Shown here in pieces: positions 3,229-49,979 of a stretch of 64,000 nucleotides of DNA (the first letter of the stretch is position 1; each line of letters opens with the position of its first letter). This stretch comes from Escherichia phage slur16, in sequence record NC_028248.1. One strand, 5' to 3'. Made by a program: the position numbers and the translations under genes. A model generated the notes under the pieces. The model saw nothing but the letters and a program-made list of their open reading frames with translations, made no database searches and had not been told where the DNA came from.

Positions 3229-3906
3229 TTAGTGCGGTCCACTTGTCTCGCCATCAGGGCAAGAGTGGGTATGACCTTTATATTCTGCATAGAATGAATC
3301 CAAATCCACGCCAGCAGCAGTTATAATTCTACCAGATGGGTCTATTGTAGCACCATTCATTCTGATATTCCCATCCACAGCAGCTCGCAAATTGGCAGCC
3401 CCGTTAGTGAAAGAAAACTCCCCGCTGCTGTCGCACCGTAATGTCCCACCAGGTGTTTGAAGCTCAAAATCGCCAGAAGGTGTCAGTTTAAAATAAACCC
3501 TATCATTCCATAACTCTACGTTATCAGGATCGATCTGTAAGGCGTTTGAGTCTGAATGAACAGAGGTGATTGCCCACCCCGGAAACAGGCCGTGAGTTTG
3601 TTGATCGTCGTTATTGTTTTCATTTCTCTCTGAAAACTGCAATCCTACAACATCTCCAGCCTTAATAGGGAGTGTTAACCTTGCCTTTCCGCTGTTTGCA
3701 GACATCACCTGAATTGGAACGTCATAGATAAGAGGGTATCTCTCCACATCTCCGTCATCAAACGTAGTTTCAGCTATTGGCTGCACGGCTGCAGAAGGTA
3801 TACTGTAGTCTACACTGACAACTCTGGCCCTGATACTGGTGTGGTAGTCCCTCATTATTTTTTCTATAAAAGATCTTACAGCAGCATCTTTCCTATTTAT
3901 TGCCAT
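3229..3906 (-). CDS. baseplate structural protein
   Basis: 225 aa ORF, stop/start abutting neighbours; position only. Confidence 0.4.
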   Translation of the reverse strand: MAINRKDAAVRSFIEKIMRDYHTSIRARVVSVDYSIPSAAVQPIAETTFDDGDVERYPLIYDVPIQVMSANSGKARLTLPIKAGDVVGLQFSERNENNNDDQQTHGLFPGWAITSVHSDSNALQIDPDNVELWNDRVYFKLTPSGDFELQTPGGTLRCDSSGEFSFTNGAANLRAAVDGNIRMNGATIDPSGRIITAAGVDLDSFYAEYKGHTHSCPDGETSGPH

Positions 3907-4910
3907 TATACCTCCTCAGTTTTGTCAACAACTCCACCCACTGTTTCCCCAAGGCCAAGCTCTGTAGTGTAATCACCACCTTCTATGGTGCCCTTATGAT
4001 GCACCGTGATCACCTTATAGAAGCCTGTATATTGCTTGCTTTTAAGATAAATAGTGGACTCTGGGAGGATAGCTCCGTTAAGGCATGTGGTTACAGTAAG
4101 GCCAACATCCTCTCTCGGGTTTTTCTTTTTCTTTTTAGATGTCGAACCACCTTTGGCAGCAGCTTTAGCTTTTCGTTTTTTAGCAGGTTCTGGGTTTTTA
4201 GGGGTAGGAGATCCGTGCATCCCAGACTCTGCACTTATTTCAAACACAGAGTCTTTGAACCTTTTTCCAACCTTGGTCCAATACAAAGCCCCATCCTGAA
4301 CGCTAAATGTTGAGTTGGTCAGCCTTGCAAACCTGCGGAGGTTCTCTGCAGTGTTTCCAGAGAAAGCCATAGAGTATTGCAAAGTCTGGTTTCCAAAACC
4401 AACAACCCTACCTTTTGGCAAGTTCATATCCTTCAGTAGGTCATTAAGCACAGAGTTCAGAGGTGTACCTTTCTGATAAGATCTTGTGCTTTGGCACTTA
4501 ATGATGTTCTCAGTGCCATCCCCAAAGATGAACTTAGTTTTTCTGGTCGGACCTTCCCACCTGTCTTCAACAAACTCCACAGTTCCGGAGAATATCAACT
4601 GGTTCTCATTATCATAGCCAGCTTCAAACATAACTGCAAGGGCATCAGCCTGATGCATATCCAGATAGTTAACTGTATCGTCAGACAGGTTGTAAACTGT
4701 CACATAACCTTTGTTTGGCTCTTTGGTATTGTCCTTTTGTATGTCAAACTCTATATTGGCAGCACCAGTGTCTGAGCTAACTTCATAAACTCCGGAATCA
4801 CTCTCCCCTTTCTTTTCAACAGATTTTGGGATATTGGTTTTTGATTTACCGCCATGTTCTACAGGACGACCAAACAATAATCGCCATGTTCTACGTCTGT
4901 ACTCTGCCAT
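3906..4910 (-). CDS. baseplate protein with Lys-rich low-complexity segment
   Basis: 334 aa ORF overlapping neighbours by 1-4 nt; contains PAKKRKAKAAAKGGSTSKKKKKNPRED. Confidence 0.4.
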   Translation of the reverse strand: MAEYRRRTWRLLFGRPVEHGGKSKTNIPKSVEKKGESDSGVYEVSSDTGAANIEFDIQKDNTKEPNKGYVTVYNLSDDTVNYLDMHQADALAVMFEAGYDNENQLIFSGTVEFVEDRWEGPTRKTKFIFGDGTENIIKCQSTRSYQKGTPLNSVLNDLLKDMNLPKGRVVGFGNQTLQYSMAFSGNTAENLRRFARLTNSTFSVQDGALYWTKVGKRFKDSVFEISAESGMHGSPTPKNPEPAKKRKAKAAAKGGSTSKKKKKNPREDVGLTVTTCLNGAILPESTIYLKSKQYTGFYKVITVHHKGTIEGGDYTTELGLGETVGGVVDKTEEV

Positions 4911-45610: not shown

Positions 45611-45889
45611 ATGAGCTGTGAAAAATCTTTTTTCTTTATTATTTACGGTAAAGATAACTGCCCACATTGTGTAAGAGCAAAAGAATTTGCAGTCAGTAAA
45701 GGTCTGCCTTTTGTATATAAGACACTTGGCGAGGGTTACACAAAAGAAGAGCTTATTGAGAAGTGCAGTCCAATCGTACCCAGAACGTTGCCGCAGATCT
45801 TCTTAGAAAGCAATCTTGAAAGTGTCCATATAGGCGGTGCCGACGATTTCATCTCTTTTGTTAAGAATGGTTTTGGAGAGAAAAAGTGA
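45611..45889 (+). CDS. glutaredoxin / NrdH-like redoxin
   Basis: 92 aa with CPHC active site (YGKDNCPHCVRAKEF); between nrdB and nrdD. Confidence 0.7.
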   Translation: MSCEKSFFFIIYGKDNCPHCVRAKEFAVSKGLPFVYKTLGEGYTKEELIEKCSPIVPRTLPQIFLESNLESVHIGGADDFISFVKNGFGEKK

Positions 45890-46746
45890 AAGTTGTAAAA
45901 CGGGACGGTAGAGAAGAGGTCTATAACGGAATTAAGGTGATCAAGGCGGCAGAGTCCGCCTTACTTGAGTCTGGACATACTGAAGAAGAAGCTTACCGGA
46001 TCGCCTGTGCGGTTAATGAAGTTGTTGCTAACAATCTACCAACCGATCAGTGCACGATCTCTGTAAAAAATATCCATATCCTTGTTGAAGATGCTCTTAT
46101 GGATATGGGTTTAAAATGTGCAGCCAGAGAATACATCCAGTATAGGCAGACAAGAGATAATAACAGAGAGGCAGGTGGAAAACTGCTTGCAGATATTAGT
46201 GGCTTCTTGGATCGCACTTGTGATGAATTTACAAAAGAAAACGCAAATAAGCCTACCAATCATGTACACACTCATCGTGACCTGCTTGCAGGCATCCTTA
46301 GCAAACACCTTGCATCAACACAGATCCTGCCAGACCGTGTCTCAGAAGAGCACAATAAAGGCTTCATCCATGTGCATGATCTTGACTACTTGATCAGTCC
46401 GTTAACAAACTGTTGTTTGGTAAATTATCCAGATATGTTGGAAAACGGATTCAACATTGGCAACGCCCATGTCAGTAAGCCGAAGTCAATAGGGGTTGCA
46501 ACAACAATCCTTAGCCAAATCTCTAGTGCGGTAGCTAGTGCTCAATATGGTGGTCAGACTATGAGCCATATTGATCATTATCTGGCACAGTATGCTGAAG
46601 CAACCTATGAGAAGAACCTTAAATTTTGCCAGGAACATTGGTTGCCGGATGCTGAAACTGTTGCAATGCAAATGACAGATAAAGACGTATTTGACAGCAT
46701 GCAGACTTTGCTCTATCAAATCAATACGTTAACTTCTGTCAACGGT
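45886..46746 (+). CDS. nrdD: anaerobic ribonucleotide reductase, exon 1
   Basis: N-terminal ATP-cone-like start (MKVVKRDGREEVYNGIKV); frame ends in intron; 5' splice site approximate. Confidence 0.8.
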
Positions 46747-46749
46747 TAA

Positions 46750-47560
46750 CAAACTGGCCGTTGTAAAACTCTCCTAACCTCATAAGAGGGGTCGGTAAAT
46801 CCGGCTAACGGGGAACGCTAAGGCGAAAGCTATGCCAATCCCGTGACTAGTTCTTACAGGAGTTGGAACGGTTGTAACGACTAACGAAAGGCAGAGATGC
46901 TTGACAAACATTTCTGAACCAAGTAGTGTAGGGGTTAGTTGAAATACTAACTTCGAAATGGAGAGGCTCTATGAAAAAGATCATTCTTAATGGTGAAGAA
47001 TCAAACTATGTGATTGATGAAGTTGGAAACGTATACGGAAAACGTGGAATGCTGCACCCAATATTGTGGGGAGGTTATGGAAAAGGTAATAAGCATGTTA
47101 AACGCCGTTATATGTACTCTTTCAACCACAAAGGTAAAAAGATTCGAATCCAAACCTCAAGGGTTGTTGCCTTGTATTGTTTGCCAGATGTCCCAGAAGA
47201 CCCTGAAAACTGGGAAGTGAATCATAAAGATGGCAATACATTGAATGATCATCCGTCTAACCTAGAGTGGGTTTTGCCGGAAGATAATAAGAGACATGCT
47301 TTCCGAACAGGACTTTGTCCAGGTAAGTGCTATAGGAAAGTGCAGGCATACAAAGGGAAAATCTTGGTGGGTGAATATCCTTCACTCTACGCCTGTGCAA
47401 AAGCCTTAAATTTGAACGTAGGTAACGTTCACAGGGCTATCGAAGGAAATGCCGAAGGTAAGCATCTCACAATAAAGGGTTATTATCTTATTGAAGTAGA
47501 GTAAGAGATAGTCTGGCCCTGTGGAAACACAGGGAGGAGACAGCAGACTCCATTCATCAC
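46750..47560 (+). mobile_element. group I intron in nrdD carrying HNH homing endonuclease
   Basis: Q-like AATCCCGTGAC (46848-46858), R-like GTTGTAACGACTAACG (46871-46886), S-like AAGAGATAGTCTGG (47503-47516) flanking the HNH ORF; splits one nrdD reading frame. Confidence 0.8.
46971..47504 (+). CDS. HNH homing endonuclease (intron-encoded)
   Basis: 177 aa; HNH core EVNHKDGNTLNDHPSNLEWV; lies inside nrdD intron. Confidence 0.8.
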   Translation: MKKIILNGEESNYVIDEVGNVYGKRGMLHPILWGGYGKGNKHVKRRYMYSFNHKGKKIRIQTSRVVALYCLPDVPEDPENWEVNHKDGNTLNDHPSNLEWVLPEDNKRHAFRTGLCPGKCYRKVQAYKGKILVGEYPSLYACAKALNLNVGNVHRAIEGNAEGKHLTIKGYYLIEVE

Positions 47561-47561
47561 A

Positions 47562-48806
47562 TTGAGTTTAGGACTGGATACCTCGGTCTTTGGTAGAATG
47601 ATTACCAAAAACTACCTGAAAGTCCACAAAATGGGTCTTGGTGAAGAACGTATCACACCTGTGTTCCCTAAAGTGCTGTTCTTCCTGGAAGAGGGTGTCA
47701 ACATGAACCCTGGGGATCCTAACTATGATTTGAAACGATTAGCTCTGGAATGCTGTGCAGAACGTATCTATCCTGACTTCGTATCTGTACCACTAAATAG
47801 AAAAGTGACAGGCTCGACAGATGGCAAAGTAACTAGCATGGGTTGCAGGAGTTTTCTTAGCAAATACAATGACTTGGAAACAGGCGAGGAGAAATACCTT
47901 GGCAGATTTAACTTAGGCGTTGTTAGCCTTAACCTGCCAATGATTGCGGCAAAAGCCAAGACGGAAGGTGTTGATTTCTTTGCAGTTCTTGACGAATACT
48001 TGGATCTTGCATACGAGGCTCACCTTGTAAGGGTTAATCGTCTAAAAGGAACAAAGGCAGGGCAGAACCCCATCATGTGGTGTGAAGGCGCTCTTGCTCG
48101 CCTGGATCCTGAAGAGAGTATTGATAAACTCTTCTATGACGGGTACGCTTCCATCAGTATTGGGTATATCGGTGTGTATGAAACCTGTCAGATTTTGGGC
48201 AGAGAGGGTGACAAGGCTTTAGCTCTTGGAATCCTTCAGCACATGAGAGATGCTTGTGAGCGATACAAGAAGGAAAGTAGACTAGCATTTAGCTTGTACG
48301 GCACTCCTTCTGAGAGTCTATGCTATAAAGCTGCAACCTGTCTGGATCGTGAATATCCGGAAGTGTTGAAGCACGAGCATGAATATCTCACCAACAGTTT
48401 CCATCAGCCAGTATGGATAAATAGCTCTCCTTTTGATAAGTGGGAGTATGAGGAAGGTTTTGCTATAATCTCCTCTGGTGGCAACATCGGATACGTAGAA
48501 ACACCTAACCTGAAAAACAACCTGGATGCTTTAGAGGCTCTTGTTGACTTCGGGTATAAACACATTATGTATTTTGGTATTAACCAACCTGTGGATAAAT
48601 GTCTCAAGTGTGGTTTCTCTGGTGAGTTCAGTGCAACAGCTAAAGGCTTTGTATGCCCAGAGTGTGGAAACCATGAAGAGGGAACGATCAGTGTAATTCG
48701 ACGTGTGTCTGGATACCTTTCCAGTCCTAACTCCCGTCCTTACAATAAAGGTAAGCAAGCGGAAGTTATCGAGCGAGTTAAGCACTACGGAAGTTGTGGT
48801 TGCTGA
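47562..48806 (+). CDS. nrdD: anaerobic ribonucleotide reductase, exon 2
   Basis: GRFNLGVVSLNLP; C-terminal zinc ribbon CLKCGF...CPECG and glycyl-radical motif RRVSGYL; exon probably begins 10-40 nt upstream of the ORF-track TTG. Confidence 0.8.
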   Translation: MSLGLDTSVFGRMITKNYLKVHKMGLGEERITPVFPKVLFFLEEGVNMNPGDPNYDLKRLALECCAERIYPDFVSVPLNRKVTGSTDGKVTSMGCRSFLSKYNDLETGEEKYLGRFNLGVVSLNLPMIAAKAKTEGVDFFAVLDEYLDLAYEAHLVRVNRLKGTKAGQNPIMWCEGALARLDPEESIDKLFYDGYASISIGYIGVYETCQILGREGDKALALGILQHMRDACERYKKESRLAFSLYGTPSESLCYKAATCLDREYPEVLKHEHEYLTNSFHQPVWINSSPFDKWEYEEGFAIISSGGNIGYVETPNLKNNLDALEALVDFGYKHIMYFGINQPVDKCLKCGFSGEFSATAKGFVCPECGNHEEGTISVIRRVSGYLSSPNSRPYNKGKQAEVIERVKHYGSCGC

Positions 48807-48869
48807 TTCTTGACAAAAGCCACAAGGATGTGGCATATTATTGACACACAGTGAGCTAGGAGGTGCAGT

Positions 48870-48986
48870 ATGTCATCAGGTATTTATAAAATTTGCAAGT
48901 GCGGCTGTAGTTGTAATCTTCGTTGGTGCAAGGCACTAGACGATTTTATTTGGCATTGCCCTAAATGTGATGCGGAGTATCTATGA
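48870..48986 (+). CDS. small Cys-rich zinc-ribbon protein (38 aa)
   Basis: MSSGIYKICKCGCSCNLRWCKALDDFIWHCPKCDAEYL; AGGAGG RBS 7 nt upstream; stop overlaps nrdG start; below ORF-track size cutoff. Confidence 0.4.
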   Translation: MSSGIYKICKCGCSCNLRWCKALDDFIWHCPKCDAEYL

Positions 48987-49456
48987 ACATTGCTGGATAC
49001 ACAGAAATATCTTACACCGAAGGACCAGGTATTAGAACTGCCTTGTGGGTATCTGGGTGCCCACACGCTTGCCCTGGTTGCTTTAATCAGGCATTTTGGT
49101 CAAAAGATAAGGGGAGGAAGTTCACTGAAGAAGACTTGCAAAAAATCTTGTCAGATTTAGATAACCCGTCTGTGTGCGGTATCTCTCTACTGGGTGGAGA
49201 ACCCTTAGCATACTATAATGAGCCAGATATTATTAGCCTGATGGAGAAAATTAAGGAAAAATTTGGTGACAAGAAAACTATTCTTGTATATACTGGGTTC
49301 ACATTTGACCATATCTCTAGTGATGTTCTTAAACTGGCTGATATCATCATTGACGGTAAGTATGTAAAAGATTTACCAACCAAGAAACCGTTCCGAGGCA
49401 GTGATAACCAAAGAATGTTTAAAAAAGTATCAGGCGGTTGGGTTCAGGTAGACTAG
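48983..49456 (+). CDS. nrdG: anaerobic ribonucleotide reductase activating protein (radical SAM)
   Basis: Cysteine cluster CPHACPGC near N-terminus; ~157 aa; follows nrdD. Confidence 0.8.
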   Translation: MNIAGYTEISYTEGPGIRTALWVSGCPHACPGCFNQAFWSKDKGRKFTEEDLQKILSDLDNPSVCGISLLGGEPLAYYNEPDIISLMEKIKEKFGDKKTILVYTGFTFDHISSDVLKLADIIIDGKYVKDLPTKKPFRGSDNQRMFKKVSGGWVQVD

Positions 49457-49459
49457 TTG

Positions 49460-49489
49460 TTGACAAAGCTTTGTTGAGTTGGTTATAAT
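49460..49489 (+). promoter_or_regulatory. sigma70-like promoter (near consensus)
   Basis: TTGACA (49460-49465), 18 nt spacer, TATAAT (49484-49489). Confidence 0.6.
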
Positions 49490-49518: not shown

Positions 49519-49632
49519 ATGGCTAAAAAAGCCTTGAAGAAGGCGTACAAGAAAGAGATTGCGCTTGAGCTTAAGAAAAAACACAAGCGTGAAAAGAAAC
49601 ATCATGAAGATGAAGAGGGGGTGCAACAGTGA
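49519..49632 (+). CDS. small highly basic protein (37 aa)
   Basis: MAKKALKKAYKKEIALELKKKHKREKKHHEDEEGVQQ; strong RBS GAGGAGG; overlaps next ORF start. Confidence 0.35.
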   Translation: MAKKALKKAYKKEIALELKKKHKREKKHHEDEEGVQQ

Positions 49633-49979
49633 CACAAGAACGTATCGATTTGGCTAATAAGTTTGTAGATCTCATTTTGCCACGGTTAGTTACTCAACAT
49701 GCAGATGCTATTTCTACTAATCTTGATGGCTTACGCCTAATGCTGAATCGCACAGATGACCCTCGTATTCGGGCTGATTTAGAAGCCTCTGCCAACAAAC
49801 TGGAAAAGTTCTTGCAAGTAGACACGCAAGAAGCCTTGCACAAGATTATGGTGGAAGGTTTCTCTAAAGAATTTACCATTAAAGAGCTTAAGGAGCTGAT
49901 CCACCAAGAAGAGATGAATATCCGAGTTCAGGCTGTTGCAAGCAGCATGGAAGCGGCTATTGAAAAACTGTTGCAGTAA
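49629..49979 (+). CDS. hypothetical protein
   Basis: 116 aa helical ORF, GTG start. Confidence 0.4.
   Translation: MTQERIDLANKFVDLILPRLVTQHADAISTNLDGLRLMLNRTDDPRIRADLEASANKLEKFLQVDTQEALHKIMVEGFSKEFTIKELKELIHQEEMNIRVQAVASSMEAAIEKLLQ

Follow-up and report, generated by a model that had tools for sequence, protein, structure and literature searches.

A conserved small cysteine-rich open reading frame of Escherichia coli phages with a predicted zinc-ribbon fold

In the genome of Escherichia phage slur16, a short interval between nrdD and nrdG, two genes of the anaerobic class III ribonucleotide reductase (RNR) system, contains an open reading frame (ORF) of 38 codons, which raises the question of whether this ORF is a gene and whether its product would serve the reductase. 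The ORF was investigated in a stretch of 64,000 nucleotides of sequence record NC_028248.1, referred to as the window, where it extends on the plus strand from an ATG at position 48870 to position 48986 and encodes a peptide of 38 residues (MSSGIYKICKCGCSCNLRWCKALDDFIWHCPKCDAEYL). A first-pass annotation of this DNA had described the ORF with an AGGAGG ribosome binding site (RBS) and a stop codon overlapping the start of nrdG, and both features are borne out. The Shine-Dalgarno sequence AGGAGG (48858-48863, plus strand) is located 6 nucleotides upstream of the ATG and is retained in the Vequintavirus loci, either complete or shortened to AGGAG, and the TGA of the ORF (48984-48986) shares bases with the ATG of nrdG (48983-48985) to form an ATGA. 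The same annotation had counted eight cysteines, whereas the peptide holds seven (at positions 9, 11, 13, 15, 20, 30 and 33) together with one histidine (at position 29), and it had proposed that the protein could act as a metal-binding partner of the RNR system. From the comparisons described here, we think it rather likely that the ORF represents a true and portable accessory gene in lytic phages of E. coli, which codes for a small protein of the zinc-ribbon type and not for a dedicated partner of NrdG. Its link to nrdG is positional and not demonstrably functional.

Conservation and distribution of the reading frame

The coding status of the small ORF was assessed in homologous DNA from ten distinct loci, whose last 28 codons were compared by the Nei-Gojobori method. 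For most pairs, the ratio of the proportions of non-synonymous and synonymous differences (pN/pS) is in the range of 0.05-0.25, with pS values of 0.6-0.87 at the upper end, and it reaches up to 0.54 in pairs containing the most divergent copy (L011). Among the copies found in SP6-like podophages of the Vectrevirus group, pN/pS is 0.23-0.33. Variable sites are distributed over the first, second and third codon positions in numbers of 12, 6 and 19, respectively. Between the window and the copy in the Vectrevirus phage ACG-C91, we find 9 synonymous and 5 non-synonymous differences, and the similarity of the two DNA sequences spans exactly the region from the start codon to the ATGA. Copies from both phage families keep the frame open, with the exception of Alma, where its tail is frameshifted, and of P0015, a deletion variant. 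Conservation of the frame in related phages, which the first-pass annotation had set as a check, is thus observed and is accompanied by purifying selection. It is this pattern of pN/pS values and codon positions that decides the status of the ORF as a gene, and not the number of its cysteines. Although the small ORF is the most cysteine-rich of the 185 ATG-initiated ORFs of 30-60 residues in the window, about 0.14 equally cysteine-rich ORFs would be expected per shuffled window, and the cysteine content on its own is therefore no more than suggestive. Judged by sequence comparison, which in this case suffices to demonstrate that an ORF of 38 codons is real, the small ORF is a genuine coding gene.

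A different view would hold that the frame is fortuitous and that its conservation reflects a promoter, terminator or attenuator for nrdG. Such a view could draw on a weak terminator-like hairpin within the ORF (48923..48939, plus strand, codons 18-23), which is followed by a T-rich run and whose region is annotated as terminator in the record of phage Murica, where the ORF itself is not called, and on the fact that the cysteine richness could arise by chance at the frequency given above. However, an element of DNA or RNA with a regulatory function only cannot be the source of the observed pattern, given the prevalence of third-position changes and the low pN/pS, and the frame has stayed open in two phage families with the exceptions named above. 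Moreover, the T-run following the hairpin is missing from the SP6-like copies, which have kept the protein, and the hairpin is for that reason probably a by-product of the codons for the sequence W-C-K-A-L. Rfam contains no match at the small ORF. Taken together, we regard it as extremely unlikely that the ORF is not a gene.

The first-pass annotation had called the ORF unannotated, which would at most be true for the ORF track that it had used. An identical ORF is listed as 'hypothetical protein' in phages slur12 (CUL03106.1) and JohannBauhin (QXV81303.1) and likewise in many further records, the 'hypothetical protein' ABI79179.1 is the same gene, and one family member has a BFVD/UniProt entry (A0A9E7SGM6, 'Uncharacterized protein'). 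In phage rV5, it corresponds to ORF 114, whose annotated start is located farther upstream and makes it overlap nrdD. In an hmmscan search, residues 1-38 match 38 of the 38 positions of the PHROG profile phrog_20137 (E=4.7e-30), a profile that also recognizes the ACG-C91 homologue (E=5.5e-23). This profile carries the label 'ribonucleotide reductase' and the RefSeq records of phages V18 and FFH2 name the ORF in the same way. The label of the profile appears to derive from record annotations and not from an RNR domain in the protein, and as a name given by neighbourhood it is probably wrong. The small ORF is hence an already catalogued but uncharacterised phage gene, and it illustrates how ORFs of this size are routinely lost from phage annotations or given wrong names, in this case by being left uncalled, termed hypothetical or named ribonucleotide reductase purely by position. 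The stretch between 48600 and 49500 is 100% identical to the Escherichia phages slur12, JohannBauhin, nomo and rV5_ev147, and its identity to numerous further rV5-like genomes (Vequintavirus) is 95-99%. Eighteen records of the series MG0656xx, which are flagged as UNVERIFIED and carry the name 'Campylobacter phage', match E. coli Vequintavirus at 95-100% identity over this part of the genome and bear Vequintavirus in their taxonomy line; the Campylobacter host label of these entries looks wrong.

When 5.8 billion proteins were searched with a profile from an alignment of four sequences, 15 clusters were returned, which originate from contigs of about 136-140 kb, contigs of about 44-45 kb, or fragments. 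An exhaustive HMMER search of 1.84 billion representatives recovered family members and one additional match (P0016), a low-complexity repeat protein that was dismissed as spurious. No copy was found among 185,579 species of bacteria and archaea, each represented by one genome, nor among complete genomes of E. coli, of which 5,426 were searched. Metagenomes contributed five further Vequintavirus-like loci and one match (L025) that was rejected as a fortuitous CGCRCNLRW string from a bacterial contig of high GC content. Across these collections, the family, whose members range from 36 to 54 residues, is a tiny orphan that appears to be confined to phages.

Two genomic contexts and the relation to nrdG

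In each of the 118 Vequintavirus records that were retrieved, a count in which a DNA search and tblastn agree by organism name, the small ORF is located between nrdD and nrdG. In the window, the upstream neighbour is the 3' exon part of nrdD (47562..48806, plus strand), which encodes the glycyl-radical domain and the C-terminal Zn ribbon, and the downstream neighbour is nrdG (48983..49456, plus strand), which encodes the class III RNR activase of 157 residues (Pfam Fer4_12 1e-42, Radical_SAM 1.5e-9). The ATGA that couples the ORF to nrdG is found in the window and about 66 of the 118 records, and it is lost in rV5-type genomes. In the latter, which include rV5, A135, L021 and L022, the small ORF ends with TAA and is followed by a 34-residue ORF, a 78-residue ORF (phrog_3249) and a nrdG allele of about 50% identity, with the next ORF after the small ORF having its own RBS. 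The coupling to nrdG described in the first-pass annotation consequently stands for the window but not for these genomes, where two ORFs intervene. In L014, the TAA stop is followed by a 34-residue ORF and a nrdG of 48% identity. In L009, a gene encoding a 169-residue HNH endonuclease (3399-3908) precedes a 54-residue variant of the small ORF, which is itself coupled by ATGA to another nrdG allele, and in A135 (L019, 15-947) a 310-residue cysteine-rich protein with repeated CPEHG...C-P-x-C motifs is encoded directly upstream of the small ORF. Both flanks of the ORF thus vary among the Vequintavirus and Vequintavirus-like contigs of 136-143 kb, which underlines the apparent character of the nrdD-nrdG interval as an insertion hot spot. 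Across genomes in which NrdG is only 48-56% identical, the small ORF shows 87-95% identity.

With respect to nrdG itself, we observe at least two alleles of about 50% identity in Vequintavirus (in L010, which is rV5, L019, which is A135, L014 and L006, each compared with 48983-49456 of the window). Genomes with the rV5-type allele and the window are near-identical in nrdD and the small ORF, and the rV5-type allele brings along the 34-residue and the 78-residue (phrog_3249) ORFs. This arrangement points to a swap of nrdG alleles by recombinational replacement, whose upstream boundary would be located exactly after the stop codon of the small ORF.

A second and very different context is found in SP6-like Vectrevirus podophages, where homologues were identified in ACG-C91 and the metagenomic contigs L011-L013. 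These copies, with a length of 36 residues and seven cysteines, are located between the gene of a nucleotide kinase (DUF3310) and the gene of an ATP-dependent DNA ligase, and in all of them the stop codon overlaps the ATG of the ligase gene as ATGA. The complete genome of ACG-C91 contains no homologue of NrdD or NrdG. The same junction is occupied differently in related phages. It is empty in LL11, contains an unrelated 38-residue ribbon ORF with the pattern CPNC...CHSC in SHAK7163 and a cysteine-free ORF of 57 residues (phrog_15259) in vB_EcoP_B, and K1E (KY435490), which aligns across it at the length of SHAK7163, probably carries the same type of insert. Every insert begins at the same ATG and ends with an ATGA on the start of the ligase gene. 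With three unrelated small ORFs at one site (L015, L016, L017 and L004), the kinase-ligase junction, as far as can be judged from these genomes, is a hypervariable slot for mini-genes. The SHAK7163 ORF shares size, predicted fold class, slot and ligase ATGA with the small ORF but no detectable sequence relationship, and a kinship of the two was rejected on the grounds that hhalign aligns only 8 residues of a single knuckle.

The two contexts bear directly on the proposal that the protein is a dedicated accessory of class III RNR, that is, a Zn or Fe-S mini-protein assisting NrdG or NrdD, either as donor of electrons or metal to the activase with its [4Fe-4S] cluster or as chaperone of the C-terminal zinc ribbon of NrdD, with co-translation setting the stoichiometry. 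This proposal would account for the location between nrdD and nrdG in 118 of 118 Vequintavirus records, for the ATGA with nrdG in the window and in more than half of these records, for the fact that L009 shows the coupling as well, with an nrdG allele that is divergent, and for the seven invariant cysteines, which are more than a plain ribbon requires. It would also be in line with other RNR classes, which have small dedicated partners such as the flavodoxin NrdI, the redoxin NrdH and the 2Fe-2S ferredoxin YfaE, all of them small redox- or metal-related proteins encoded in nrd operons. However, whereas these proteins co-occur with their RNR class, the small ORF occurs in phages without an RNR of their own, in which it is maintained by purifying selection and coupled to a DNA ligase, and it is missing at the nrdD-nrdG junction of phage phi92, where the stop codon of nrdD overlaps the start of nrdG with nothing in between. 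Out of 2,235 phage records with a NrdG homologue, only the 118 of Vequintavirus carry the small ORF. In addition, rV5-type genomes lack the coupling of the ORF to nrdG, its conservation does not co-vary with that of NrdG, and no fusion to any RNR protein is found among the 1.84e9 representatives searched. The role as partner of the anaerobic RNR system suggested by the first-pass annotation is hence not supported by these comparisons, and we consider a dedicated partnership unlikely, although an accessory that acts on NrdD or NrdG of the host is possible. Descent from the C-terminal zinc ribbon of NrdD was also considered and rejected, as the alignment of both knuckles by hhalign, at a probability of 9%, reflects generic ribbon similarity only.

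A further possibility is that the ORF functions as translational coupler or regulator of the following gene, either in cis, with ribosomes that complete the ORF melting a weak hairpin over the GGAG and re-initiating at the ATGA, or in trans. The trans mode would resemble that of Com of phage Mu, a small zinc-finger protein whose gene is located immediately ahead of mom and overlaps it, and which binds the mRNA and opens the mom start site. Compared by description only, com encodes a small Cys4-type zinc protein, as is predicted for the small ORF, and either gene directly precedes the next gene, with an overlap that the small ORF shows in the window, L009 and the Vectrevirus copies, and small zinc ribbons are also known from RNA-binding regulators. 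A GGAG in codons 35-36 (Ala-Glu) of the small ORF (48974..48977, plus strand), 5 nucleotides upstream of the nrdG ATG, constitutes a candidate RBS for nrdG, and GGAGTA occurs without change in every copy, also next to the ligase gene, so that both the ATGA and the preceding motif are found in either genomic context. RNAalifold places this GGAG in a G.U-rich hairpin (alignment columns 60-72 with 80-92) with 96% of cells paired. Against a regulatory role, the downstream gene of the small ORF differs between phages, unlike in the case of Com, and rV5-type genomes have kept the intact protein in the absence of the overlap. A mere upstream ORF acting in cis would require neither 19 invariant residues nor a pN/pS near 0.1. 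The predicted pairing is hardly distinctive, with 95.8% observed compared to 94.3% in column shuffles and a structure that was derived from the same sequences, and among the synonymous changes, transitions prevail because two-fold codons permit no others. Coupling or regulation therefore appears improbable as the main role of the ORF.

Predicted fold and putative function

To describe the protein, we used models by AlphaFold2 that are based on an alignment of the family. For the 38-residue form, these show three strands (residues 16-20, 25-30 and 35-37) at a mean predicted local distance difference test (pLDDT) score of 66, and for the 54-residue variant the same topology with a pLDDT of 75-81 in the core and a tail of low confidence. 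In Foldseek searches of the PDB, the best matches of both models are classical zinc ribbons, with a query-normalised TM-score of around 0.7 and a root mean square deviation (rmsd) of 1.0-1.5 Å over 32-34 residues. They include RPB9 (TM-score 0.76, rmsd 1.0 Å), the N-terminal ribbon of the NUDIX hydrolase 3cng (30-35% identity), ZifS and ribbons of topoisomerase I, all at E-values of 0.2-0.9, which are not significant and whose magnitude reflects the tiny size of the domain. Sequence searches of the PDB returned weak matches that are all zinc-ribbon-like, and neither Pfam (at E<=1) nor NCBIfam contains a meaningful match.

The family shows 19 invariant residues, namely K7, C9, C11, G12, C13, C15, L17, R18, W19, C20, L23, D25, W28, C30, P31, C33, E36, Y37 and L38. 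All seven cysteines are thus invariant in the 16 variants compared, whereas position 29 is occupied by His, Tyr or Cys, which argues against His 29 as a conserved ligand. Two knuckles are defined by C9-x-C11, which becomes C-x-x-C in variants of 41-54 residues that also carry a Lys/Glu-rich N-terminal tail, and by C30-P-x-C33. The ribbon-like cysteine pairs of the first-pass annotation are accordingly supported by a predicted zinc-ribbon-like fold, with the qualification that the first knuckle is C-x-C in the window and C-x-x-C only in the longer variants. A zinc ribbon on C9/C11 and C30/C33, as predicted from the models, is a reasonable reading, in which a core of 32 residues would adopt a three-stranded β-sheet with the knuckles C9-x(1-2)-C11 and C30-P-x-C33 arranged around one metal ion. 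C13, C15 and C20 are equally invariant yet surplus to a plain ribbon, which suggests that they form a second metal site; seven thiolates would fit two tetrahedral ions with one bridging cysteine.

Compared with classical zinc ribbons of the RPB9/TFIIS type and with those of the Nitrosomonas NUDIX hydrolase (3cng) and Thermus ZifS (8yoz), the small ORF shares the two cysteine knuckles at a distance of about 18 residues and the predicted three-stranded antiparallel sheet. It differs by the additional C13, C15 and C20, by a first knuckle that is mostly C-x-C and by its nature as free-standing protein of 38 residues instead of a domain, and the match has no significant support from sequence or E-values. 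The likeness to the metallothioneins SmtA/BmtA (C-x-C-x2-C-x-C) is one of pattern only, consisting of the CKCGCSC run followed about 15 residues later by an aromatic residue and C-x2-C. Membership in the bacterial metallothioneins (Metallothio_Pro) was rejected, as there is no Pfam match at E<=1, hhalign assigns a probability of 1% with respect to the SmtA sequence and 1JJD was not returned by the PDB searches. With restriction alleviation proteins of the Lar family, the small ORF shares size class and predicted fold class but no detectable sequence relationship. Zinc-ribbon mini-proteins as a kind are already known, and the small ORF would be a new member with an unusual signature of seven cysteines and a gene that has the architecture of a cassette.

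This cassette consists of the coding region with its own RBS, whose last codons (GCG-GAG-TAY-YTA-TGA) comprise both the GGAG and the ATGA for the following gene. In this format, it could enter directly before the ATG of another gene without silencing or polar effect, since the downstream gene, either nrdG or the DNA ligase gene, would be translated by coupling, and such a mechanism would allow mini-genes to be inserted before essential genes in two unrelated phage families. Because the gene is under purifying selection in phages that lack both NrdD and NrdG, its product would be independent of these phage proteins. The conservation of nearly every core residue despite saturated synonymous sites, combined with an occurrence in phages of E. 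coli only, suggests that most of its surface contacts a conserved partner. As both slots are part of modules of nucleotide metabolism, with the order nrdA-nrdB-grx-nrdD-[slot]-nrdG-phoH in one case and phosphoesterase-nucleotide kinase-[slot]-ligase in the other, this partner would most likely be a host factor or a nucleic acid encountered during the phase of infection concerned with nucleotide and DNA metabolism. In phage T7, the gene preceding the ligase gene is gene 1.2, which encodes gp1.2, an inhibitor of the host dGTPase, and by analogy of position a host-directed role of the small ORF is plausible. If its target were found, the protein would be added to the few characterised phage mini-proteins, although the practical stakes are modest.

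A more specific version of this idea assigns the seven cysteines to a binuclear metal or Fe-S centre in a portable effector of 32 residues that acts on the nucleotide supply of the host. If correct, such an effector could target the glycyl-radical/RNR activation machinery of E. coli or a defence enzyme that depletes dNTPs, and it would explain why the gene is retained in the nrd cluster of myophages as well as next to the kinase and ligase genes of podophages. We consider this possibility as quite a long shot.

Several observations weigh against the interpretation of the small ORF as a portable accessory gene that is independent of NrdG. In Alma (L006, 1501-2477), an insertion of one nucleotide near the 3' end lengthens the ORF to 61 residues. 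The nrdG gene of the same phage is broken into ORFs of 130 and 78 residues in different frames, and the breaks in the two genes could be sequencing errors or genuine decay. In P0015, found on an ENA contig of 1473 nucleotides, a 62-residue protein combines residues 1-20 of the small ORF with the C-terminal 42 residues of the 78-residue phrog_3249 ORF, and this fusion, whose joint is either a natural deletion or an assembly artefact, removes the C-terminal half of the small ORF and destroys the ribbon. The two variants may therefore either indicate that the gene is dispensable or be the product of assembly errors. The confidence of the AlphaFold2 models is moderate and the E-values of their structural matches are insignificant, as described above, and no mention of the small ORF was found in the literature. 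Finally, the location in the nrdD-nrdG interval of every Vequintavirus could reflect function and not only synteny within a narrow clade, and the protein could act on NrdD or NrdG of E. coli, which SP6-like phages meet as well.

Mobile DNA and other features of the locus

Both contexts of the small ORF are rich in mobile DNA. In the window, an insert of about 0.8 kb (~46750-47561) divides nrdD into two ORFs (45886..46749 and 47562..48806). It carries an ORF encoding an HNH/NUMOD-like endonuclease (46971-47504) and a sub-threshold Rfam match to a group I intron (47247-47534, 28.8 bits, E=2e-4). The split is shared with slur12, whereas nrdD is uninterrupted in JohannBauhin, Murica and rV5. By its sequence features, the insert looks like a mobile group I intron. 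This environment leads to another explanation, namely that the small ORF is a passenger or part of a selfish element, a remnant of the traffic of homing endonucleases and introns on nrd genes, such as a detached zinc-finger module or a mobility helper, and would be of no use to the phage itself. The nearby intron-like insert, the HNH gene in L009, HNH genes near the Vectrevirus slot, the cysteine-rich 310-residue ORF in A135 and the movement of the small ORF between two phage families would all be compatible with such an origin. Conversely, nuclease motifs such as HNH or GIY-YIG are absent from the protein, which has no Pfam match either, and the ORF is found both with and without a neighbouring endonuclease gene. 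Its occurrence in each of the Vequintavirus records and the strong purifying selection at almost every residue are better explained by a useful gene than by a remnant, and we find the passenger explanation very doubtful.

Further potential signals are located in the spacer between nrdD and the small ORF and downstream of nrdG. A sigma-70 promoter-like site (48810..48839, plus strand), which is defined by consensus match only (10/12), consists of TTGACA, a spacing of 18 nucleotides and CATATT with an upstream TG. The site closely follows the nrdD stop codon, and in the alignment it is kept in rV5, Aya and L007 and replaced in A135, L014 and L009. The same spacer contains a perfect hairpin with a stem of 6 base pairs (GCCACA-AGGA-TGTGGC, 48819..48834), which is terminator-like on both strands. 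Directly downstream of nrdG, a perfect sigma-70 consensus (49460-49489, TTGACA, 18 nucleotides, TATAAT, 12/12) is followed by AGGAGG and a Lys-rich ORF of 37 residues (49519..49632, phrog_7670). At its end, this ORF shares bases with the GTG start codon of its successor (49629..49979, phrog_7650), and it thus provides another example of a conserved mini-ORF that is coupled to its neighbour.

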